The position numbers and the translations under genes are program-made. The notes below the pieces were generated by a model, which ran no database searches, was not told where the DNA came from, and saw nothing but the letters and a program-made list of their open reading frames with translations. Below, piece after piece: positions 4,830 through 61,311 of a DNA stretch of 64,000 bases. The stretch lies in the NCBI GenBank assembly GCA_903864935.1, contig CAIPHT010000006.1, positions 37,129 to 101,128 on the forward strand, in the 5' to 3' direction. The first letter of the stretch is position 1. Every line of letters begins with the position of its first letter. Source of the DNA: Candidatus Vogelbacteria bacterium. GTDB lineage: Bacteria; Patescibacteriota; Minisyncoccia; Phycocordibacterales; XYD1-FULL-46-19.

Positions 4830-4931
4830 TTTTCACCTCCTTTCGGGTAGGTTGTTGTGGATCACTTGATCCGATTGTAGAGACCTTTCCTTCCTCAAGC
4901 TAACAGATTGCCTGTTATTGTCAAAAACTAA

Positions 4932-4971
4932 GGTAATAAACCATTCACGACCGTGAATGAATTGCTACCTT
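4932..4971 (+). repeat. 40-bp imperfect palindrome, family A copy 1 (ggtaataaaccattcacgaccgtgaatgaattgctacctt).
   Basis: Outer GGTAA..TTACC arms and inner CATTCACG-a-CCGTGAATG arms. Copies at 5557 and 30551. Confidence 0.6.
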
Positions 4972-4997
4972 GATATAAATTATCTATAATTTAAGAA

Positions 4998-5561
4998 ATG
5001 AAAAAGATTTCTAGAATAAATCACAAAGAAGTTATTTTAAGAACTATTGGCCTAGCTGGTTTACTTGCGGTCTCGGCTGTTGCCCCTGGGGTTTTGGTTC
5101 TTTATAAAAAACACAAGAAAATCCAGTATGAAAAACAGTCCAGAAATTATATAAACAGGGCAACGCAAAATCTAATCAAAGATGGTTTTGTCGAAATAAA
5201 AATTAACGAACAGGGAATAAAGTGCCTCCGTCTAACCAATCGTGGTCAAGAAGCCCTAAAGGAATACGCTTTGGCTGGGCTAGAAATCAAAAAACCTTGG
5301 CGTTGGGATCACAAATACCGGGTAATTATCTTCGATATTAAGGAATTTAAACGAGGAACGAGAGACAAACTAAGGCACTGGCTAGAACATCTTGGCTTTG
5401 TTCGCCTACAAAACAGTGTCTGGGTTTATCCCTATGATTGTCGAGAGGTCGTGATCTTACTTAAAGCTAATTTTAAAATAGGGAAAGAAGTCCTATATAT
5501 GACAGTTGATTCTATAGAAAACGATAAGTGGCTCAAGAAAGAATTTGGTCTGGCTAGGTAA
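4998..5561 (+). CDS. Short PaaX-like protein: N-terminal hydrophobic segment, a wHTH, and a Cas2/PaaX-middle-domain-like beta-alpha-beta core.
   Basis: 187 aa. The segment WRWDHKYRVIIFDIKEFKRGTRDKLRHWLEHLGFVRLQNSVWVYP matches the PaaX pattern W.GKW...L...GF.......P and the Cas2-like strand-helix-strand layout. TATAAT lies 7 nt upstream of the ATG with no SD. The gene is flanked by 40-bp palindromes at 4932-4971 and 5557-5596. Confidence 0.5.
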   Translation: MKKISRINHKEVILRTIGLAGLLAVSAVAPGVLVLYKKHKKIQYEKQSRNYINRATQNLIKDGFVEIKINEQGIKCLRLTNRGQEALKEYALAGLEIKKPWRWDHKYRVIIFDIKEFKRGTRDKLRHWLEHLGFVRLQNSVWVYPYDCREVVILLKANFKIGKEVLYMTVDSIENDKWLKKEFGLAR

Positions 5562-5596
5562 CAAACCGTTCACGGTCGTGAATGGTTTACTACCTT
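5557..5596 (+). repeat. 40-bp imperfect palindrome, family A copy 2. Overlaps the stop codon of the PaaX-like gene.
   Basis: ggtaacaaaccgttcacggtcgtgaatggtttactacctt. Confidence 0.6.
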
Positions 5597-5648
5597 TCTT
5601 TTTATTAAGAATTGTGATAATTTGCCAACAGAAAGGAGGTGATTAACA

Positions 5649-10193: not shown

Positions 10194-10236
10194 CCCGCCA
10201 GACCTTAAGTGAGCCCAAGGTCTGGCGGGTTTTTTG
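10194..10236 (+). terminator. Rho-independent terminator.
   Basis: CCCGCCAGACC-loop-GGTCTGGCGGG followed by TTTTTTG. Confidence 0.65.
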
Positions 10237-12440: not shown

Positions 12441-13636
12441 TGTCCACAAAAAAACAACAACGGGTATTTGTCGGTATGAGTGGCGGAGTAGACAGCTCGG
12501 TCTCGGCCGCTTTGCTTAAGCAGGCCGGTTATGAAGTAATTGGCGTTTTTATCCGTGTCTGGGAACCGGCCGGTTTTGTTTGCAACTGGAAGGAAGAGCG
12601 ACGCTGGGCGAGACGAGTAGCGGCCCACTTAGACATCCCCTTACTTACCCTCGATTTAAGCAGGGAATATAAAAAGAGAGTTGTTGATTATTTTATCTCT
12701 GAATATAAAGCTGGGCGAACACCAAATCCTGACGTGATGTGTAATAAGCATATCAAATTTGGTGTTTTCTATGATTGGGCAATGGCTCACGGTGCCGATT
12801 TTGTGGCAACGGGACACTACTCTCGCGTCGAAAAAACGCGAGAATTATCAATGATCAATTCTCAATTTTCTCAAGCCCCGGTTTCCCGAGGTGAGTCCTC
12901 AAGTGCTGTGCCCCTCGAAGCCCTTGGGCGAAGTGGGGAGCCCGAGGTCTCACCTCAAGAGGGGCTTGTTCTAGAAATTGCCAAAGACTTAAACAAGGAC
13001 CAATCATACTTCCTCTGGAATCTTAAAACCGAGCAACTCTCTAAAATCCTTTTCCCAATTGGCCAATACACCAAACCTGAAGTGCGCAAACTCGCAACAA
13101 AATTCAAACTCCCCACCGCCCTTAAAAAAGACAGTCAGGGTTTATGTTTTGTTGGCAAAATTGATTTCAAAGATTTTTTAAAACGCGAGATTAAAGAAAA
13201 AGAGGGAAATGTCTTAAATGAAAGAGGGGAAGTAATAGGCAAGCATGAAGGGGCCACCTTTTTTACCATTGGCGAAAGACATGGCTTCGAAATTAGCACC
13301 AAATCACCAAGTGAATTGCCTTATTACATCATTGCCAAAGATATTAAGAAAAATACTCTCACTGTCTCAAACAAAAATAATCAAGGGCGTGCCTTGATTA
13401 CGGAAATAAAAATAGAAAAAACAAATTGGATTTCTGATCCCCAAAAGCTACCAACTAAAAGCTACCAACTAAAAGCTAGGGTCCGCTACCGTCAACCCCT
13501 CCAAAAATGCTCACTGTTAATAGTTGATGGTCAATCGTCAATAGTCACTTTCGACCAACCCCAAATCGCCGCCCCCGGCCAATCGCTTATCTTATATCAT
13601 AAGGATATCTGCCTCGGCGGGGGAATTATTGCCTAA
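12440..13636 (+). CDS. mnmA: tRNA 2-thiouridylase MnmA, with an in-frame insertion of about 23 residues encoded by a palindromic repeat element.
   Basis: PP-loop VFVGMSGGVDSSVSA, plus DQSYFLW and a C-terminal GQSLILYHKDICLGGGII. The extra segment ...RGESSSAVPLEALGRSGEPEVSPQEG... is encoded by nt 12888-12956, which is a diverged copy of the repeat at 35667-35733. Confidence 0.85.
   Translation: MSTKKQQRVFVGMSGGVDSSVSAALLKQAGYEVIGVFIRVWEPAGFVCNWKEERRWARRVAAHLDIPLLTLDLSREYKKRVVDYFISEYKAGRTPNPDVMCNKHIKFGVFYDWAMAHGADFVATGHYSRVEKTRELSMINSQFSQAPVSRGESSSAVPLEALGRSGEPEVSPQEGLVLEIAKDLNKDQSYFLWNLKTEQLSKILFPIGQYTKPEVRKLATKFKLPTALKKDSQGLCFVGKIDFKDFLKREIKEKEGNVLNERGEVIGKHEGATFFTIGERHGFEISTKSPSELPYYIIAKDIKKNTLTVSNKNNQGRALITEIKIEKTNWISDPQKLPTKSYQLKARVRYRQPLQKCSLLIVDGQSSIVTFDQPQIAAPGQSLILYHKDICLGGGIIA
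12888..12956 (+). repeat. About 69-bp palindromic element in its full-length form, inserted in frame in mnmA. Outer arms are GAGGTGAGTCCTC / GAGGTCTCACCTC; the core CCCCTCGAAGCC..CGAAGTGGGGAG is shared with 35667-35733.
   Basis: Direct sequence comparison with the intergenic copy at 35667-35733. Confidence 0.6.
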
Positions 13637-14502: not shown

Positions 14503-14541
14503 CCCCCGACACGCATCAGCGTTGTCGGGGGCAGTTTTGTT
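14503..14541 (+). terminator. Rho-independent terminator of cassette 2.
   Basis: CCCCCGACA-cgcatcagcg-TTGTCGGGGG followed by cagTTTTGTTT. Paralogous to 13984-14023. Confidence 0.6.
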
Positions 14542-14650
14542 TATTCAAAAAACCCTTATTTGTCGAAGTCCAACTTCGTAAACTATACAAAACTGTTAAT
14601 AAGTGACAAATATTTTTATTTTTGGCTATTTTTTGTTACTATATTAGACA

Positions 14651-25619: not shown

Positions 25620-25890
25620 AATTTATGCCATAGTAAAACTACACAGCTTAAGGGCTCACTTGCCACAAGTTCTAGGACAGAAACTTAATCTTGTGCAAAG
25701 GAGGAGAAGACGGAGGGAAGACCTCTGAGATGAAAAAGGTCTTACATTGGGCAAGACGGTAGGTATGACAGATGGGAAGACTGCGGTTGTTCCCCGCACC
25801 CCTGTCACTGGCAAGCTGAATGGGCCGAGCTGGATAGGGGTGTCACAATAGTGGCATCCCGCCTTTTTATTTAAACTTATCCCCATTTTT
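25620..25890 (+). ncRNA. Candidate structured non-coding region. The strand is unknown and no family is assigned.
   Basis: About 270 nt lies between a strong terminator and the REP element, with no credible ORF. Several local hairpins, for example AAGACCT-ctgagatgaaaa-AGGTCTT. I see no convincing match to RNase P, SRP, tmRNA or 6S RNA conserved motifs. Confidence 0.2.
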
Positions 25891-25896
25891 GTATAC

Positions 25897-25919
25897 TATG
25901 CGAGATTGGATATCGCACA
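25897..25919 (+). repeat. REP hairpin (tatgcgaGATTGGATAtcgcaca).
   Basis: 7-bp stem and 9-nt loop. Identical core at 26640, 30888 and 49459, and an inverted copy at 26105. Confidence 0.7.
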
Positions 25920-25949: not shown

Positions 25950-26624
25950 ATGAGGGAGAAGCCCACGGAAGACTACATTTATCACATTTTTAATCGCGGA
26001 GTAGACAAGCGAGAAATTTTTTCTGATGACAGTGATCGTCAACGTTTTTTGGCCTGTCTTTATCATTTTAATGACACAGCTCAAGTGAGAAATATCGATC
26101 GCGTGTGCGATATCCAATCTCGCACAAATGACGACCGGGATAAATTAGTGGAGATACTAGCCTTTACCCTGATGCCTAACCACTTCCATCTCTTAGTAAA
26201 ACCTCTGATTGAAGACGGTGTTTCTGAATTTATGAAAAAAATTGGTATTGGCTACACTCATTACTTTAATATAAAAAACGAACGATCAGGAAGTCTCTTT
26301 CAAGGTAAATATAAATTTGTAAGGATAGAAGACGATGAGCAGCTAAACTATATACCTTATTACATCCACTTTAATCCAGCCGAACTCGTTGATTCGGGAT
26401 GGAAAGAAAAAAAAGTTCAGGATAGTCAAAAGGTTTTTGATTTTTTAAAATCTTATAGATGGTCAAGTCTTCGAGATTATCTCGGCCAAGACAATTTCTC
26501 TCAAATTATAGACAAAGGGGTCCTGACAGACTACCTAGGGAGCCCCGAAGAATTTGAGAAGGAAATCTCTGCTTGGCTCAAAGAAATGGGCTCAATAGAC
26601 CATACAAATCTGTGGATAGAGTAG
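25950..26624 (+). CDS. IS200/IS605-family Y1 (HUH) transposase of the RAYT type.
   Basis: YHIFNRGVDKREIF, HUH motif NHFHLLV, then GYTHYFN....SGSLFQGKY with the catalytic Tyr. 224 aa, which is typical RAYT length. Confidence 0.8.
   Translation: MREKPTEDYIYHIFNRGVDKREIFSDDSDRQRFLACLYHFNDTAQVRNIDRVCDIQSRTNDDRDKLVEILAFTLMPNHFHLLVKPLIEDGVSEFMKKIGIGYTHYFNIKNERSGSLFQGKYKFVRIEDDEQLNYIPYYIHFNPAELVDSGWKEKKVQDSQKVFDFLKSYRWSSLRDYLGQDNFSQIIDKGVLTDYLGSPEEFEKEISAWLKEMGSIDHTNLWIE
26105..26127 (+). repeat. REP hairpin copy in inverse orientation, embedded inside the RAYT coding sequence.
   Basis: tgtgcgaTATCCAATCtcgcaca, encoding DRVCDIQSRTND. Confidence 0.6.
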
Positions 26625-26639
26625 CCAAAATATCCTTAT

Positions 26640-26662
26640 TGTGCGAGATTGGATATCGCACA
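26640..26662 (+). repeat. REP hairpin (tgtgcgaGATTGGATAtcgcaca).
   Basis: Perfect 7-bp stem; see 25897. Confidence 0.7.
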
Positions 26663-26746: not shown

Positions 26747-27319
26747 ATGACTAAAAACATAGACGAAAACGAGGAGGATTTTGAGTTCGTGGAGAATACC
26801 GAAGATAGGGCGCCAGAGGCAGCCGAGATGGGCGGGAAATTGAAGAAAGTTAAAGAAGAACTCAAAGCCTGCCAGACCGAACGCTCTGAATACCTTGATG
26901 GCTGGCAACGCGCCAAGGCAGACTACCTGAATCTTAAAAAGGAGGGGGAAGCAGGGAAAAGCGAGCTGGCCAAATGGGCCAAAGAAGGAGTACTTGCAGA
27001 TCTCTTCGTTCTCGCCGACAGCTTCGAGATGGCCTTCATCAACAAAGAAGCTTGGGAGCAGGCACCAGAGAATTGGCGGAAGGGGGTGGAATATATTTAT
27101 AACCAATTGCAAAACATTTTCCGCGACCACGGAGTAGAAGAGATAGAACCCAAGGTGGGCGACAAATTCAATCATGCGGAACAGGAACCCATCGCGACAA
27201 TTGAAACTGATAACAAAGAAGAAGATGATGAAATTGTTGAAATAATTAAGAAAGGTTACCGTCTACATGGGAAGATAGCGAGACCGGCGAGTGTAAAAGT
27301 TAAGCATTATCAAAATTAA
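26747..27319 (+). CDS. grpE: Nucleotide exchange factor GrpE.
   Basis: Coiled-coil N-terminus and a conserved GrpE core (LADLFVLADSFE...HGVEEIEP.GDKFNHAEQEPIATIE..IVEIIKKGYRLHGKIARPASVKV). Directly upstream of dnaK. Confidence 0.8.
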   Translation: MTKNIDENEEDFEFVENTEDRAPEAAEMGGKLKKVKEELKACQTERSEYLDGWQRAKADYLNLKKEGEAGKSELAKWAKEGVLADLFVLADSFEMAFINKEAWEQAPENWRKGVEYIYNQLQNIFRDHGVEEIEPKVGDKFNHAEQEPIATIETDNKEEDDEIVEIIKKGYRLHGKIARPASVKVKHYQN

Positions 27320-27438
27320 TTTCCAATTATCAATTCTCAATTTTCAATCAAGTCTCCAATGTTTCAATTTTAAAATTTACTGAAAATTGAGAACTGAAAA
27401 TTGATCATTATTAGATTAAAAAACAGATAAAAATAAAC

Positions 27439-29421: not shown

Positions 29422-29456
29422 GAAGTTGGCACTTCGCGTAGCCAAGTCCAACTTCG
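29422..29456 (+). repeat. Short-form GAAGTTGGACTTC-family palindromic element immediately after the dnaK stop.
   Basis: gaagttggCacttc-gcgtagcc-aagtccaacttcg. The arms are inverted relative to the pyrD copies. Confidence 0.5.
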
Positions 29457-30359: not shown

Positions 30360-30550
30360 CCGCGGGGAATGCTCAGGGCCGATTTCTACGCAGGGTAGAC
30401 CTAAGTCACCTTCGCCTGCAACAGAGCAAGCTACGGCGAACCAAGGAGGGGGTTGCCCTAATCAGCTGATTTCAAGAGTGCCTTACTGAATTTCAGACAC
30501 TCACTTTCTGCTTCTAATTATACTCTCATTTTACTGCCCTGTCAAGCCAT

Positions 30551-30590
30551 GGTAATCATCCATTCACGACCGTGAACGATTTGTTACCTT
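30551..30590 (+). repeat. 40-bp imperfect palindrome, third copy of family A (ggtaatcatccattcacgaccgtgaacgatttgttacctt).
   Basis: Same architecture as 4932-4971 and 5557-5596. Confidence 0.6.
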
Positions 30591-30616
30591 GTTCGAAACC
30601 TTTCCCCCAACAAAAG

Positions 30617-32762: not shown

Positions 32763-32807
32763 CGACCTATTTCCCATACTTATAATTATAACCTTATGTA
32801 CAAAATC

Positions 32808-32834
32808 AGACGGCCGTCCAAAAGTGTACATAAG
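32808..32834 (+). repeat. 27-bp direct repeat, left copy (agacggccgtccaaaagtgtacataag). Contains the perfect palindrome GACGGCCGTC.
   Basis: 26 of 27 identical to 33403-33429, in the same orientation. Confidence 0.65.
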
Positions 32835-32850
32835 GTTCTTTATAAAATAT

Positions 32851-33372
32851 TTAGATAATATCTGTTTCTTTAACTTCAAAAAATTTCAGAAAAGGCGTAA
32901 TCTTCGCTACTTTCAAAAACTCAATAAATTCTGGGGGTAACGGGGCGGGGCCAAGCCAGACACTCTGTTGCATTTTTTTGAAACCGAGGGTTACCAATTC
33001 TATCCTCAACCAGTTTCTGTCTTTACGTCTCGCTTCGGGAATGTCAAAAGCTATAATAATCTTGCGGTCTGATTTTTTCTGTTTATTTTCTACTCTGGCA
33101 TATTTTTTAGAAAACTTACTTTTACCAAATTTATTCTTACCGAAAACTGTGATTTTCCAAAGACCATCTTTATTTTCAACCAAACCCTGCTTTTTCAGGC
33201 GAGACAGGGCAACCCTAAGAGAATTATCAAAAACTTTATCCTCCTTTATTTTAGAACCCTCCCCCAGATCATCAAAGCCAGGACCAACACGCCGAAGCAT
33301 CCGTTCTCTCAAACGGCTATAATTTCCGGGACTATTCGATAAGAAAAATAACAATTCTTCACCAATACTCAT
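32851..33372 (-). CDS. Short PaaX-like protein 2 (wHTH plus Cas2-like core), a paralogue of 4998-5561.
   Basis: RKIIIAFDIPEARRKDRNWLRIELVTLGFKKMQQSVWLGPAP gives the same pattern as the first copy. The N-terminal wHTH is LRVALSRLKKQGLVENKDGLWKIT. The start is moved to the ATG at 33372, because the ORF-track start at 33426 lies inside the flanking direct repeat. Confidence 0.45.
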   Translation of the reverse strand: MSIGEELLFFLSNSPGNYSRLRERMLRRVGPGFDDLGEGSKIKEDKVFDNSLRVALSRLKKQGLVENKDGLWKITVFGKNKFGKSKFSKKYARVENKQKKSDRKIIIAFDIPEARRKDRNWLRIELVTLGFKKMQQSVWLGPAPLPPEFIEFLKVAKITPFLKFFEVKETDII

Positions 33373-33402
33373 TTTTTTATTTATCACCATATTATCATAT
33401 TT

Positions 33403-33429
33403 GGACGGCCGTCCAAAAGTGTACATAAG
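33403..33429 (+). repeat. 27-bp direct repeat, right copy (ggacggccgtccaaaagtgtacataag).
   Basis: See 32808-32834. Confidence 0.65.
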
Positions 33430-33795: not shown

Positions 33796-35130
33796 ATGGA
33801 AAGCTGGATCAAAACTAGGAACAAAATTATTGGTTGGAATTATCGAAATATTCTCAAACCAATTCTCTTCAAATTCGATCCTGAAGATATCCACGACTTA
33901 TTTATTAAAGTAGGGAATCTCCTTGGCCAAACATCCGCCACTCGATATTTAACAAGAGTTCTTTTTGATTATGAGAACCCAGTGCTTGAACAAGAAATTT
34001 TGGGCATCAAATTTAAAAATCCAGTTGGCCTCTCGGCTGGCTTCGACAAGAATGCAAGACTAACAAAAATCTTACCAGCTGTTGGCTTTGGTTTTGCTGA
34101 AGCGGGTTCAGTCACTGGCCGACCCTGCAAGGGCAATGAGGGGCGACATTTATGGCGCTTGCCTAAGTCTAAGAGTTTGATTGTTTATTATGGTTTGACG
34201 AATGATGGGGCAGAGGCCATCGCCAGGCGATTGTTAGAAGTCCAACTTCAAGTGAGCCCGAAGTTGGACTTCGAACAAGAAGCCAAGGGTCCGGAAGTTG
34301 GACTTCGGGCTCACTTGAAGTCCAACTTCCTACACAAGTCCAACTTCGTTCTGGGCATCAGTCTCGCCAAAACAAACGACCAAAAAACCATCACGACCGA
34401 AGCGGGGACTGCTGATTATATTAAAGCCTATGAAGCCTTCCTCAAGACCGACGTTGGCGACTACTTCACCATCAACATCAGTTGCCCCAACACCTTTGGT
34501 GGCGAACCTTTTGTTGAACCAGAACGTCTTGATTTGTTACTCTCCGCTTTTGCTAAAATAAGAGACGAAGAATCTGCCCGAGGACTACCCTCGGTCAAAG
34601 CGAAAGAAGTCCAACTTCAAGTGAGCCCGAAGTTGGACTTCGTGAGCGTCAACCGTCCACTTTTTATAAAACTCCCACCAGACCTAAGTGAAGAAAAACT
34701 AGACGCCATTATTGAACTGGTCAAGAAATATAAAATCAATGGCTTCGTCTCGACAAATCTCACCAAGGACCGAAACAATCCACTAATTAAAGATAAAATA
34801 AAGGATCCTTTGCCCACAGACAAAGGGGGATTGTCAGGTAAGATTGTTGAGGAGCTCGCAACCAAGCAAATTGAATATATTTATAAAAAAATAAAAGATC
34901 TCCCTCAGACCGAGAGACCTATCATCATTGGTTGCGGAGGCATCTTCACAGCCCAAGACGCCTACAACAAAATCAAAGCTGGCGCCTCACTCCTCCAACT
35001 CATCACCGGGATGATTTTCGAAGGCCCTCAAGTCATTAGCGAGATCAATCAAGGCCTGGTCACCCTGCTCCAAAAAGATGGGTATAAAAATATAAGTGAG
35101 GCGGTAGGGAAGTCTACTTGCCAACCATAA
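33796..35130 (+). CDS. pyrD: Dihydroorotate dehydrogenase (class 2-like), carrying three in-frame palindromic-element insertions that add about 100 aa.
   Basis: GFDKNA, NISCPNT, GGLSG, IIGCGGI...DA..KI.AGASLLQL.TG. It is 444 aa, against about 340-360 for typical DHODH. The extra peptides EVQLQVSPKLDF (twice) and PEVGLRAHLKSNF are encoded by the repeats at 34237-34273, 34292-34330 and 34606-34642. Confidence 0.8.
   Translation: MESWIKTRNKIIGWNYRNILKPILFKFDPEDIHDLFIKVGNLLGQTSATRYLTRVLFDYENPVLEQEILGIKFKNPVGLSAGFDKNARLTKILPAVGFGFAEAGSVTGRPCKGNEGRHLWRLPKSKSLIVYYGLTNDGAEAIARRLLEVQLQVSPKLDFEQEAKGPEVGLRAHLKSNFLHKSNFVLGISLAKTNDQKTITTEAGTADYIKAYEAFLKTDVGDYFTINISCPNTFGGEPFVEPERLDLLLSAFAKIRDEESARGLPSVKAKEVQLQVSPKLDFVSVNRPLFIKLPPDLSEEKLDAIIELVKKYKINGFVSTNLTKDRNNPLIKDKIKDPLPTDKGGLSGKIVEELATKQIEYIYKKIKDLPQTERPIIIGCGGIFTAQDAYNKIKAGASLLQLITGMIFEGPQVISEINQGLVTLLQKDGYKNISEAVGKSTCQP
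34237..34273 (+). repeat. 37-bp palindromic element, short form (GAAGTCCAACTTC-aagtgagcccg-AAGTTGGACTTC-g), in frame in pyrD.
   Basis: Perfect 13-bp inverted arms. Translated as EVQLQVSPKLDF. Confidence 0.75.
34292..34348 (+). repeat. Inverse-orientation copy of the 37-bp element plus an adjacent half-element, in frame in pyrD.
   Basis: cggaagttggacttcgggctcacttgaagtccaacttcc, then aagtccaacttcg. Translated as PEVGLRAHLKSNF..HKSNF. Confidence 0.7.
34606..34642 (+). repeat. 37-bp palindromic element, second direct copy, in frame in pyrD.
   Basis: Identical to 34237-34273. Confidence 0.75.
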
Positions 35131-35154
35131 CCTTATTTTGTTAATATTATCGTT

Positions 35155-35526
35155 ATGGAGAACTTAGATCCAAAAAACACAAAAAAGGAAACCATAGCAA
35201 TGATAGAGAGATTGCCCGATGAAACCCTCTCACAATTGGCAATAGCCGGCTTCGTACATGTTACGGGTCTGGGAACTCAAATTTTGCGAGTAGAGGATGT
35301 TATCAAGGCTAATGAAAGGGATCTTGGACGTTGGAATACGTATAACGGTAAGACCGTCTTGGTAACCGTCGATGGCCAAGTCTGGCTTGGCAAAGGCCTT
35401 CTGTCCAACGAGCTGGTTGCCGAACTCTGCCCAAATGGTCAGGGAGCGAACATCCCCTGCTCTTATGGAGAGATGATCTATGTCGACAGACTCCTTGACC
35501 GCTTTGCTCACCCCTACGGCATATAG
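35155..35526 (+). CDS. Hypothetical protein.
   Basis: 123-aa ORF. No recognisable motif. Confidence 0.35.
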   Translation: MENLDPKNTKKETIAMIERLPDETLSQLAIAGFVHVTGLGTQILRVEDVIKANERDLGRWNTYNGKTVLVTVDGQVWLGKGLLSNELVAELCPNGQGANIPCSYGEMIYVDRLLDRFAHPYGI

Positions 35527-35666
35527 CCGGCCCCCATTACTCCCGCCCGTACGGCGGCAACGAATCCCGTTGCTAGCAGTACGTGGCGGGATTTTTTGTT
35601 TAAGAAAAGGAAGTTAGAAGTCGGATCTGGCTACGCGAGATACGACTTCAGAACTTCCTAACAAAA

Positions 35667-35733
35667 GAAGTCCAACTTCAAGTGCCTGCCCCTCGAAGCC
35701 TTGGCGAAGTGGGGAGCCCGAAGTTGGACTTCG
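35667..35733 (+). repeat. Full-length (about 67 bp) palindromic element: GAAGTCCAACTTC-aagtg-cctgCCCCTCGAAGCCttggCGAAGTGGGGag-cccg-AAGTTGGACTTC-g.
   Basis: The 37-bp form in pyrD equals this element minus the inner roughly 30 bp. Intergenic, between the 35155 gene and the convergent tyrS. Confidence 0.7.
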
Positions 35734-60773: not shown

Positions 60774-61311
60774 ACCCAACCCGCCCGTCTGTTAAGCCAC
60801 CGGCAAGCCCGTCGTCTTGATGAGACGGGCTTTGCTATTACTTTAAATTATAAATAAGCGATTTTTAAGGCGAAAAGTGAAAAAAATCGAAAAATGACCA
60901 AATTTGGCTTTTTGAGGATCTTTAAGAAAATAGCGATATTAACACTTTTTGACGGCCGTCAGGAAATGTTAATAAGGGTTCGGGGTCAGAAATTTAGCGA
61001 TAAGTTGACAGAGAAGTGAAGAAAATATTTTTGGAAAATAATTTTTAGACGGCAGGGTAGGGGGTTTTAATATCGCAAAATGCATTGTCCGACGTCAAGG
61101 CACACATCGGACAATGCCCTTCGATTTTGCAACATTAAGCCTACGGCTTATGTCGCAAAATCTATGTTGTGCGACATATACCATAGTTATCCACAGCTAG
61201 CTAAAAGCCCTCCCCCTTTACAAGATTGACAATTTGTTTCACATTTGATAATCTATCTTTCAGACAAAGTGGTGAGCAACTAGTGCTTACCCAAACAAAA
61301 AGGAGAAGTCC

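Follow-up and report, generated by a model that had tools for sequence, protein, structure and literature searches.

In-frame hairpin elements in the pyrD gene of a Candidatus Vogelbacteria genome and their probable relation to REP/REPIN-type repeats

Several kinds of short bacterial repeat bear on the locus described here. REP and REPIN elements are associated with a REP-associated tyrosine transposase (RAYT), for example in E. coli and Pseudomonas (PMC3116915, PMC3337134, PMC5581495), and a second group is formed by the Rickettsia palindromic elements, or RPEs (Ogata et al. 2000, Science 290:347; summarised in PMC10969869). Bacterial MITEs such as Correia/NEMIS, ERIC and BOX make up a third (review PMC10969869). 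Intragenic REPs tagged with GTAG/CGTC were described in Opitutus terrae and Thioalkalivibrio (Di Nocera et al. 2013, PMC3733652), where they encode 20-30 aa, sometimes at two sites of one gene, and were read as neutral linker or loop insertions. As REPs inside genes are on record from bacteria other than Rickettsia, the novelty of the present case is somewhat lower. Our literature search on CPR bacteria with RAYT or REP, on Paceibacteria with palindromes and on strings of the 13-mer discussed below found nothing relevant.

We followed up an earlier note on a 64-kb stretch of DNA, here called the window, which had proposed that palindromic mobile repeats are translated in frame inside pyrD. Coordinates are those of the window, and all features are given on its + strand. 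The extra segments of this gene are probably translated in-frame hairpin insertions, REP/REPIN-like elements that belong to a Patescibacterial lineage of RAYT-like (Y1, HUH) transposases.

The host gene, pyrD (33796..35130), encodes a class-2-like dihydroorotate dehydrogenase of 444 aa (Pfam DHO_dh, 1.3e-57). Its PDB matches are quinone DHODHs, with breaks in the alignment at aa ~149-185 and ~258-285, and every residue invariant in 25 aligned orthologues is kept. The protein had been described as about 100 codons overlong; this figure suits E. coli PyrD (336 aa, a difference of about 108 aa), whereas the excess over Patescibacterial orthologues of about 373 aa is about 70 aa. In the alignment of 25 orthologues, lengths run from 444, 440, 431, 408 and 386 down to about 373 aa, with all differences at the same two sites. 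Comparison at the codon level with L021, L022, L024 and L050-L052 showed these sites to be filled, differently filled or empty. Because most orthologues lack the segments and close ones vary in them, the segments are insertions and not native sequence, which is the outcome that the earlier note had expected of an orthologue alignment.

Site 1 holds copy 1 (34237..34272), a 36-nt hairpin composed of arm GAAGTCCAACTTC, loop AAGTGAGCCC and arm GAAGTTGGACTTC and translated as EVQLQVSPKLDF (RNA hairpin -18.9 kcal/mol, z -5.7). A 21-nt spacer encoding EQEAKGP (34273..34293) leads to copy 2 (34294..34329), translated as EVGLRAHLKSNF, and together the three form a head-to-head doublet with 41-nt arms that are 80% complementary and 21 nt apart. 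Copy 2 had been taken for an inverse copy. Its loop is indeed inverted, the minus strand reading GAAGTTGGACTTC-AAGTGAGCCC-GAAGTCCAACTTC, but it is not a plain reverse complement, as the CCA/TGG triplets at the arm centres are swapped. Its complementarity to the other copies is 83%, yet it still folds as a perfect hairpin (-23.4 kcal/mol), and the same isoform is present in L021. Beyond it lies a solo half arm, CAAGTCCAACTTC (34335..34347; 12/13 matching), translated as HKSNF, the NF of which aligns with the native K/N-F of orthologues. The half arm was also considered as the mark of a native REP-like target at the NF codons; this idea is not supported, the empty site in L050 (CGC TCA AAT TTC) not being REP-like.

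Site 2 holds a small, older hairpin of another family (34578..34594; CCGAGG-ACTAC-CCTCGG, translated ARGLPS), which L022 and L050 share in diverged form, followed by copy 3 (34606..34641), identical to copy 1 and likewise translated as EVQLQVSPKLDF. The identity between copies 1 and 3 extends over 38 nt. All pyrD copies are read in phase GAA|GTC, giving the peptides EVQLQVSPKLDF and EVGLRAHLKSNF. Two identical 36-nt hairpins, a third one and the half arm thus all stand in frame, and the central observation of the earlier note is upheld.

In an AF2 model of PyrD (pTM 0.85), pLDDT falls below 50 only at residues 154-182, 267-284 and the C-terminus. Both inserts sit between a helix and the next strand, that is, in alpha-to-beta loops of the TIM barrel, and the model places them in two disordered surface loops of an otherwise confident barrel, as had been anticipated for extruded inserts. 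The same two loops are occupied in relatives. The hairpin family is in frame at site 2 in L021 (a 66-nt form) and L036 (an identical 36-mer) and at site 1 in L021 and L024, and across relatives site 2 holds three different hairpin families in differing orientations and frames. Because independent assemblies from other samples carry the family, the pyrD repeats are not an assembly artefact, an alternative that the earlier note had left standing.

It is very unlikely that the hairpin segments are untranslated, whether removed from the mRNA or bypassed, or that they represent native PyrD sequence or an artefact of assembly. A strong hairpin might conceivably be a processing site, and nothing more direct speaks for this explanation. 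Against it, intragenic copies are all multiples of 3 in length (36, 66, 33 and 69 nt), none of 16 lies in the stop frame when one third would be expected if frame were irrelevant, most orthologues are without the inserts, and the same inserts recur in assemblies made independently from different samples.

The element measures 13+10+13 = 36 nt, GAAGTCCAACTTC-AAGTGAGCCC-GAAGTTGGACTTC, and not the 37 bp first reported; the 37th base is a 3' G that is kept in 16 of 19 copies. Its perfect 13-bp stem agrees with the strong mRNA hairpins predicted earlier and borne out by the folding energies of copies 1 and 2. The unit can be described as two inverted 13-nt REP-like palindromes (GAAGT-YSR-ACTTC) around the 10-nt loop AAGTGAGCCC. 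The repeats had been called stop-free multiples of 3; all copies are in frame, but the element itself is stop-free in only four of six reading frames, frame 2 of either strand containing TGA. Stem cells pair in 95.4% of cases and compensatory changes occur in 10 of 13 stem pairs, a number that 0 of 500 shuffles reached, and all 10 loop positions are invariant while the stems covary. Four different peptides are encoded by the copies. Conservation of the elements also far exceeds that of synonymous sites. Taken together, the sequences indicate that constraint acts on the hairpin rather than on the peptide. In the flanks of 19 oriented copies we found no target-site duplication, no conserved GTAG/CGTC tag and no strong target motif beyond the 3' G and a weak G at position -4. 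GTAG is present only within the loop of a 33-nt sister family.

Such conservation could also reflect a function for the host. The hairpins would then be nucleic-acid signals in which the loop AAGUGAGCCC, on any 13-bp stem, binds a conserved protein or RNA, and selection would retain them within and between genes as possible stabilisers or processing sites of mRNA, as terminators, or to pause translation between folding units. In favour of this explanation, the hairpins are strong (-19 to -23 kcal/mol), and elements at orthologous sites are 35-36/36 identical when third-codon positions are only about 50% identical and synonymous sites are near saturation. The invariant loop is also found on unrelated stems: an intergenic 36-nt hairpin at 10194..10229 joins the identical loop AAGTGAGCCC to the unrelated 13-bp arms CCCGCCAGACCTT and AAGGTCTGGCGGG and is followed by T6 in a terminator-like arrangement. 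This variant occurs twice in L031, and L038 also combines the loop with unrelated arms. Nevertheless, we regard a host signal as unlikely. Within genes the same element lies in either orientation, which gives different loops in the RNA; copies sit in unrelated genes, and most orthologues and about 100 kb of related sequence lack them; and, depending on the lineage, one PyrD loop is taken up by any of three unrelated hairpin families. An Rfam search of the hairpins matched no family, returning only generic miRNA-precursor hairpins below threshold, and a host signal would not explain why the arms are found next to a transposase-like gene.

Elsewhere in the window, the 13-mer GAAGTCCAACTTC with at most one mismatch was found 11 times on both strands against 0.10 expected, and the loop five times in 64 kb. 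The intergenic family members noted earlier were recovered at 35667-35732, 29422-29455 and 14565-14577. The first (35667..35732) is a 66-nt long form with the same arms and a nested 30-nt insert that separates AAGTG from AGCCC in the loop; in L013 the 36-nt form stands at the syntenic position, and the long form is translated in PyrD of L021. Close by lies the 33-nt intergenic hairpin of the sister family, GAAGTCGGATCTGGCTACGCGAGATACGACTTC (35617..35649; termini GAAGTC...GACTTC), which is translated within PyrD of L024, L051 and L052. A variant hairpin, GAAGTTGGCACTTC-GCGTAGC-CAAGTCCAACTTC, stands downstream of dnaK (29422..29455). The third member is a solo intergenic inverted repeat of the RAYT-flank type, ACCCTTATTTGTC-GAAGTCCAACTTC-GTAAA (14541..14604), with its 13-mer at 14565-14577, comparable with the downstream RAYT flank of L022. 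As for the copy reported in mnmA, a 69-nt in-frame hairpin at 12888..12956 does have the same loop with a nested insert, but its arms differ (GAGGTGAGTCCTC / GAGGTCTCACCTC); in MnmA the Pfam HUP domain is interrupted after aa 135.

Eight of the nine exact 13-mers in the window fall within 1.5 kb (34237-35732), and the cluster in pyrD could accordingly have arisen by duplication or conversion on the spot. This distribution speaks for copies that spread and stay uniform without any dedicated enzyme, through replication slippage promoted by hairpins, template switching and gene conversion. The 38-nt identity of copies 1 and 3 and the missing target duplication are in line with such a process, and an arm-swapped isoform such as copy 2 is the expected product of conversion or template switching between near-identical arms. 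However, identical 36-mers occur in unlinked genes of genomes whose PyrD proteins are only 57-67% identical, and the arms are exactly the palindromes that bracket the RAYT-like gene in several genomes, a match that slippage does not predict. We consider enzyme-free spread improbable.

The dispersal of the element was assessed in related genomes. The PyrD of the window had no exact match in the contig index. A scan of 596 Gb of contigs with an 18-mer gave 20 matches, of which ~13 were chance matches in unrelated phyla, in keeping with the size of that search, and the seven from Paceibacterota/Vogelbacteria were kept; a metagenome scan permitting long forms returned 36-nt forms only. A scan of viral contigs gave no match, and hence no evidence for carriage by phages. 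The window and the Paceibacterota/Vogelbacteria contigs yielded 23 non-redundant complete elements of 36-66 nt. Sixteen of them lie inside ORFs of 186-497 aa and seven are truly intergenic, proportions that come from loci selected by the pattern itself and are biased accordingly, as is the census of host genes. The hosts include CysS, RNase R, PrmC, a 2-hydroxyacid dehydrogenase, RNase HII, Tgt, enolase (twice), MiaA (twice), PyrD and others, so that many unrelated housekeeping genes carry the element, in both orientations and both stop-free frames. No split gene was observed. Nesting also occurs: a 30-nt insert occupies the element loop at 35667-35732 and in L021, a 27-nt insert occupies the loop of the RAYT-flank palindrome in L050, and additional hairpins abut the element loop in L036 and L042.

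A conserved 10-mer shared across species, often in an inverted-repeat context, within coding regions and in variable parts of proteins, recalls the DNA uptake signals of Neisseria (DUS) and Haemophilus (USS), which can likewise lie within ORFs or be paired as inverted copies. Scavenging of DNA is assumed for CPR bacteria. Uptake sequences of this kind are present at about one per kb. With five loop copies in the 64-kb window and not one in the roughly 100 kb of L050-L055, loci whose choice did not depend on the element, the density is far too low and patchy for such a role, and the conserved motif is a hairpin loop and not an arm. We dropped this interpretation on grounds of density and consider it highly improbable.

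A candidate for the mobilising enzyme lies between rpsI and grpE (25950..26624), where a 224-aa protein matches Pfam Y1_Tnp (5.9e-9) with a score above the cut-off of that family. Its assignment to RAYT proper is less secure, since the match to NCBIfam REP_Tyr_transpos (1.7e-10, 40.9 bits) is below the curated cut-off of 80. The best PDB profile match is a weak one to TnpA-REP (4er8, E 0.11), and a single-sequence PDB search gave no match. The residues H78, H80 and Y138 (HUH plus Tyr) are invariant, and the order rpsI-RAYT-grpE-dnaK is preserved in six genomes.

The gene is accompanied by palindromes at three positions. In the window these are TGCGAGATTGGATATCGCACA upstream (25899..25919), where relatives have CGAAGTTGGACTTCG; an inverse copy in frame inside the ORF (26104..26127), translated as RVCDIQSRT in a column where distant homologues have GAAGTCGGACTTC (EVGL); and the same palindrome downstream (26639..26662). 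The GAAGT-YSR-ACTTC 13-mer of the hairpins stands on both sides of the gene in L022, L051, L054 and L055. Specifically, L022 and L051 have GAAGTTGGACTTC upstream and GAAGTCCAACTTC downstream, and L054 and L055, with proteins 45-46% identical and in other neighbourhoods, have GAAGTCSGACTTC on either side of the ORF and also in frame within it. Co-varying variants stand at these three positions in the window, L050, L052 and L053. These data suggest that the RAYT-like Y1 gene may encode the mobilising enzyme of the hairpins. The window enzyme itself may not act on the pyrD copies, because its flanking palindrome is the variant GCGAGATTGGATATCGC (variant form GTGCGAGATTGGATATCGCAC), unlike the GAAGT 13-mer of pyrD.

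In the reading we prefer, that of REP/REPIN-like insertions, the candidate enzyme would cut and rejoin the hairpins as single-stranded DNA, in a manner modelled on IS200/IS605 and RAYT, and would copy them to new sites without target duplication; the missing duplication matches expectation for Y1 transposases. The enzyme would favour the loops of pre-existing hairpins, a preference that would explain why hairpins are nested in hairpins and why the two hot spots of PyrD hold composite arrays. Most insertions would land in genes because the genome is about 90% coding, and survival would be limited to elements that are 3n long and stand in a stop-free frame and a tolerant surface loop; these would be read through as disordered peptide loops in an enzyme that stays functional. 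Mobility, translation and enzyme activity are predictions for this system.

A bolder version, to which we attach limited credence, would see a Patescibacteria-wide RAYT lineage that carries a copy of its own target hairpin in frame within its coding sequence and drives the insertion of hairpins into hairpins, with a preference for loops that already exist. The AAGUGAGCCC loop would be a recognition signal for the enzyme or a host factor, kept across genera, and not a passive spacer, and the system would act as a standing generator of disordered protein loops, a vertically inherited partner of its host over the long term. If so, it would shape the protein evolution of streamlined genomes and be more than junk.

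Beyond the earlier note, the analysis adds the link with a RAYT-like gene, the architecture of REP doublets, the invariant loop with covarying stems, and the fact that several hairpin families have repeatedly settled in the same two loops of the protein. The genomes of ultra-small CPR/Patescibacteria pass for streamlined; nevertheless, the essential genes pyrD, eno, miaA, cysS, tgt and mnmA bear what are probably translated selfish hairpins. Such insertions show, as a natural experiment, where conserved enzymes have loops that tolerate added sequence. They also call for caution in annotation and phylogenomics, since lineage-specific 'insertions' of 11-40 aa in CPR proteins may be repeat DNA and homoplasious between species. 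Among REP systems it is unusual that the loop is invariant when the stems covary and that the transposase ORF contains a REP copy; these features could reveal how this clade of enzymes recognises its substrate.

Compared with REP/REPIN systems, the elements share short palindromic units in dispersed multiple copies, and, like REPINs, doublets of inverted units around a short spacer that form hairpins. The Y1/HUH transposase-like gene bracketed by the same palindromes resembles a REPtron and may likewise be single-copy and vertically inherited, and the pyrD-type hairpins are without target duplication, as in REP/RAYT. Several points count against the REPIN reading. The spacer, or loop, is the most conserved part and is also paired with unrelated arms, whereas classical REPINs conserve the REP arms; there is no GTAG/CGTC tag; the protein falls below the curated RAYT cut-off in NCBIfam and its PDB match is weak; and copy number per genome appears low and patchy. 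Other differences from REP/RAYT are the small size, with units of just 13-15 nt and a doublet of 36 nt, and the palindrome copy that the transposase gene itself contains in frame. REPs are also predominantly extragenic where the present hairpins are mostly intragenic and in frame (16/23 in long ORFs, in a pattern-selected sample).

The intragenic REPs of Opitutus and Thioalkalivibrio come closer in this respect, with REP singles and dimers wholly inside ORFs of known proteins. There, intragenic copies are a tagged minority of large extragenic families, whereas here the tags are absent and intragenic copies dominate (in a sample biased towards the pattern), and the recurrent use of one protein loop by several families across species is unreported for those REPs. 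Bacterial MITEs are likewise small non-autonomous repeats able to fuse in frame with host ORFs, but they measure 70-300 bp and have IS-derived terminal inverted repeats and target-site duplications; the present elements are 36 nt, show no duplication and have no parent IS that we could see. The parallel with RPEs drawn in the earlier note holds at the level of the phenomenon: RPEs are selfish palindromic repeats, translated in frame within unrelated housekeeping genes at fold-tolerant positions of a reduced genome, and the present elements probably are too. An element of the RPE-1 type measures about 100-150 bp and its encoded peptide is conserved, whereas the present element encodes 12 aa and yields its four peptides through orientation and frame. 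A sequence relation is not obvious, and we have not filed the pyrD hairpins as RPEs because size (36 nt) and lineage (Patescibacteria) differ. They would represent a second, independent case of Rickettsia-type selfish DNA in proteins, built of much smaller units and, where RPEs have no identified dedicated transposase, accompanied by a candidate enzyme.

The 444-codon ORF at 33796-35130 encodes a class-2-like dihydroorotate dehydrogenase (Pfam DHO_dh, 1.3e-57; DHODH matches in PDB) and encloses three 36-nt hairpins and a solo arm. Two identical copies (34237-34272 and 34606-34641) consist of 13-nt arms around the 10-nt loop AAGTGAGCCC; the third (34294-34329) is a perfect hairpin with an inverted loop, followed by a solo arm (34335-34347) that matches the arm 13-mer GAAGTCCAACTTC at 12/13 positions. 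Each arm is its own mini-palindrome, GAAGT-NNN-ACTTC. All copies lie in the phase GAA|GTC, giving the peptides EVQLQVSPKLDF (twice) and EVGLRAHLKSNF (once), in agreement with an earlier note on this DNA that had described in-frame palindromes in both orientations. That note's inverse copy holds for the loop and the perfect pairing but not as a plain reverse complement, as the central arm triplets CCA and TGG are also swapped and the copy is 83% complementary to the others. The strong mRNA hairpins it expected were reproduced by RNA folding, at -18.9 and -23.4 kcal/mol (z -5.7 and -7.7). Over both strands of the 64 kb, GAAGTCCAACTTC with at most one mismatch occurs 11 times against 0.10 expected. 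Eight of the nine exact 13-mers are packed into 1.5 kb, indicating that local duplication or conversion contributes to the pyrD cluster.

By the names that its best homologues bear, the source organism is a Patescibacterium (Paceibacterota/Vogelbacteria-like MAG). Alignment of 25 orthologues gave a typical PyrD length of ~373 aa, compared with 444 aa in the window. Close relatives form a graded series (444, 440, 431, 408, 386 aa, and so on) in which length varies at only two places, site 1 (after residue ~148) and site 2 (after residue ~258), and the window protein retains every invariant residue. An AlphaFold2 model with this alignment as input showed a confident barrel (pTM 0.85), with pLDDT <50 solely at 154-182, 267-284, and the C-terminus. 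Each insert falls between a helix and the next strand (H139-152 to E185-190; H242-261 to E289-293); in TIM barrels, alpha-to-beta loops and the catalytic site occupy opposite faces. The extra segments, as the note had proposed, are insertions in tolerant loops and not native PyrD sequence. Separately, Cys-230 of the NISCPNT motif (S229-C230, window 34480-34500) is invariant in the window and 24 aligned Patescibacterial orthologues. The same column in rat and human class-2 DHODH holds the second Ser of NVSSPNT, the catalytic base in class 2, with Cys in this role in class 1. The window enzyme would then combine a class-2-like sequence with a catalytic residue of the class-1 kind.

Codon-level comparison of pyrD with related loci (L021, L024, and L022 at 82, 80, and 79% protein identity, and L050-L052) disclosed different fillings of the same loops. 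At site 2, the 36-mer of the window is accompanied by a small CCGAGG/CCTCGG hairpin, and the small hairpin alone is present in L022 and L050. L021 has the 66-nt long form there, which is read as EVQLQVPAPRSLGEVGSPKLDL. A sister element of 33 nt (GAAGTCG...CGACTTC) occupies the site reversed in L024, and forward in a different frame in L051 and L052; the 36-mer in another relative, L036, is identical to that of the window. Site 1 is empty in L050 and holds other combinations in L021, L022, L024, L051, and L052. Such differences show that hairpins entered these protein loops independently, a recurrence compatible with selection for tolerant positions, with insertion aimed at hairpins already in place, or with the two combined.

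Beyond pyrD, one scan of species-representative genomes, one of JGI metagenomes, and the window together yielded 23 non-redundant complete elements. Sixteen lie within open frames of 186-497 aa and seven are genuinely intergenic, proportions that are indicative only, the sample being pattern-selected. As read from sequences and motifs, the host products are CysS, RNase R, PrmC, a 2-hydroxyacid dehydrogenase, RNase HII, Tgt, enolase and MiaA (each in two species at the same site), PyrD, and a DNA-alkylation-repair protein; no gene split by an insertion was seen among the 23. Intragenic copies use both orientations and both stop-free frames, producing four peptide types (phases, 9 versus 7 copies), never the TGA-containing frame, and their lengths (36, 66, 33, and, in mnmA, 69) are all multiples of three. 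With a coding density of roughly 90%, near-random insertion and purifying selection would be expected to leave mostly intragenic copies. The Tgt, PrmC, and enolase ORFs of L030, L015, and L048 contain multiple extra inserts, GC-rich and of low complexity (LPAGRQGGEGG, SAQGRQ, ACPERSRRGK, and RGESSS among them), that resemble translated hairpins of further families. Translated repeats of this type may extend well beyond the 36-mer.

Judged from the sequences, constraint appears to act on the hairpin and loop, not the peptide. Among 15 distinct 36-mers, chosen by their loop (four further loops that lacked a right arm were excluded) and invariant in it, pairing was found in 95.4% of stem cells versus 76% in shuffles, and both sides had changed at 10/13 stem pairs, which 0/500 shuffles reached. 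Pairing is kept in arm variants CCA/TGG, TGG/CCA, CCG/CGG, CGG/CCG, and C-to-T/G-to-A. The loop also sits on unrelated 13-bp arms, such as CCCGCCAGACCTT/AAGGTCTGGCGGG at 10194-10229, a variant found twice in L031, with a GAGGT variant in L038. The window copy, an intergenic 36-nt hairpin with GC-rich arms followed by TTTTTT, looks like a terminator bearing the element's loop. In same-site pairs (enolase, L033/L048; MiaA, L034/L039; PyrD, window/L036), the elements agree at 35/36, 35/36, and 36/36 positions, whereas the host proteins share 67-78% of amino acids outside them, identical residues agree in their third codon position at a rate of only 0.50-0.53, and the directly adjoining residues differ. 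Elements so alike in such diverged hosts must have inserted recently or repeatedly, have been homogenised across copies, or be under selection at the nucleotide level.

Approximately 8 kb upstream of the pyrD elements, the ORF at 25950-26624 encodes a Y1_Tnp protein (Pfam, 5.9e-9). The NCBIfam model of REP-associated tyrosine transposases matched it at 1.7e-10, but the score of 40.9 bits falls short of the cut-off, 80; its top PDB profile match was E. coli TnpA-REP (4er8; weak E of 0.11), and HUH and Tyr are invariant across 26 homologues. This RAYT-like gene occupies the rpsI/grpE interval in six genomes (proteins 59-78% identical), a synteny that argues for vertical inheritance there. In L022 and L051 the arms of the pyrD element flank it, CGAAGTTGGACTTCG on the upstream side and CGAAGTCCAACTTCG on the downstream side; the flanks carry CGAAGTTGGATTTCG in L052, GTGCGAAATCCGATTTCGCAC in L053, and GTGCGAGATTGGATATCGCAC in the window and L050. 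Distant homologues in L054 (Giovannonibacteria) and L055, with 45-46% identity and other gene neighbourhoods, have GAAGTCSGACTTC upstream, downstream, and in frame within the ORF (IEVGLRY, YEVGLRK; 6178-6190 in L054, 3868-3880 in L055). The window ORF holds its own variant palindrome in frame at 26104-26127 (RVCDIQSRT), in the alignment column of their EVGL; the in-ORF palindrome might be autoregulatory or part of the mobile unit. Window 14541-14604 is a solo RAYT-flank copy bearing the GAAGT 13-mer, and the loop decamer occurs without arms at 25652-25661 (minus strand), ~240 nt upstream of the RAYT-flank palindrome. The presence of the 13-mer at the flanks and inside the ORF suggests that this enzyme clade has it as its cognate REP-like unit, and the 36-mer is built like a REPIN, from an inverted pair of REPs with a spacer between them.

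Two other models are alive, in which the hairpins serve a host function or enzyme-free recombination spreads or maintains the copies. Both are kept in play by the mismatch in the window between GAGAT-variant RAYT-like flanks and GAAGT-type pyrD elements, by an invariant part that is the spacer and not the arms, by the absence of a GTAG or CGTC tag with the elements, by a copy number that looks low, and by the clustering of 13-mers. The loop was absent from ~100 kb of loci that had been selected by their RAYT gene, independently of the element.

For the REPIN-like reading, a mode of insertion is suggested by nesting. The long form (35667-35732; also L021) has 30 nt placed within the loop, between AAGTG and AGCCC, the mnmA insert (12888-12956) has the same nested core on other arms, a 27-nt insert interrupts the loop of the palindrome upstream of the RAYT-like gene in L050, and further GC-rich hairpins abut the element loop in L036 and L042. 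No target-site duplication was found at element flanks, where only a 3' G is conserved. Insertion could target single-stranded hairpin loops, which would suit an HUH enzyme working on single-stranded DNA and would help explain hot spots.

The window holds further repeats. The AT-rich family AATTATCAATGATCAATTCTCAATTTTC is translated in mnmA (12843-12870), beside the hairpin insert, and recurs as an inverted pair in the grpE-dnaK spacer (27317-27410). Repeats of 60 nt centred on GACGGCCGTC (32775-32834, 33370-33429, 60917-60976) bracket ORF 32851-33426, a PaaX Cas2-like domain protein, and may be operator sites of this regulator. Palindromes of family CCATTCACGACCGTGAATGA flank ORF 4998-5561 (4925-4979, 5550-5604) and recur 25 kb away (30544-30598). 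Duplicated 50-nt blocks (13974-14023/14493-14542 and 13678-13729/14060-14111), located around two small ORFs in the mnmA-alaS interval, contain the GC-rich terminator-like hairpin GCCCCCGACACGCACCAGCGTTGTCGGGGGC.

In-frame palindromic repeats have two precedents: the RPEs of Rickettsia (Ogata et al. 2000, summarized in PMC10969869) and the GTAG/CGTC REPs of a number of bacteria, Opitutus terrae in particular (PMC3733652). For Proteobacteria there are good descriptions of REPIN-RAYT systems (PMC3116915, PMC5581495). Our literature search turned up neither a REPIN-RAYT-like system described for Patescibacteria nor any mention of these sequences, Rfam had no family for the hairpins, and a scan of viral contigs revealed no viral carrier of the element. 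The likeness to Rickettsia drawn in the note, of selfish palindromes tolerated in an ORF, rests on a real observation and is supported as a reading. Compared with the known systems, the unusual traits here are the tiny 36-nt unit, the invariant loop with covarying stems, the REP within the transposase ORF, and the cross-genus identity of the elements.
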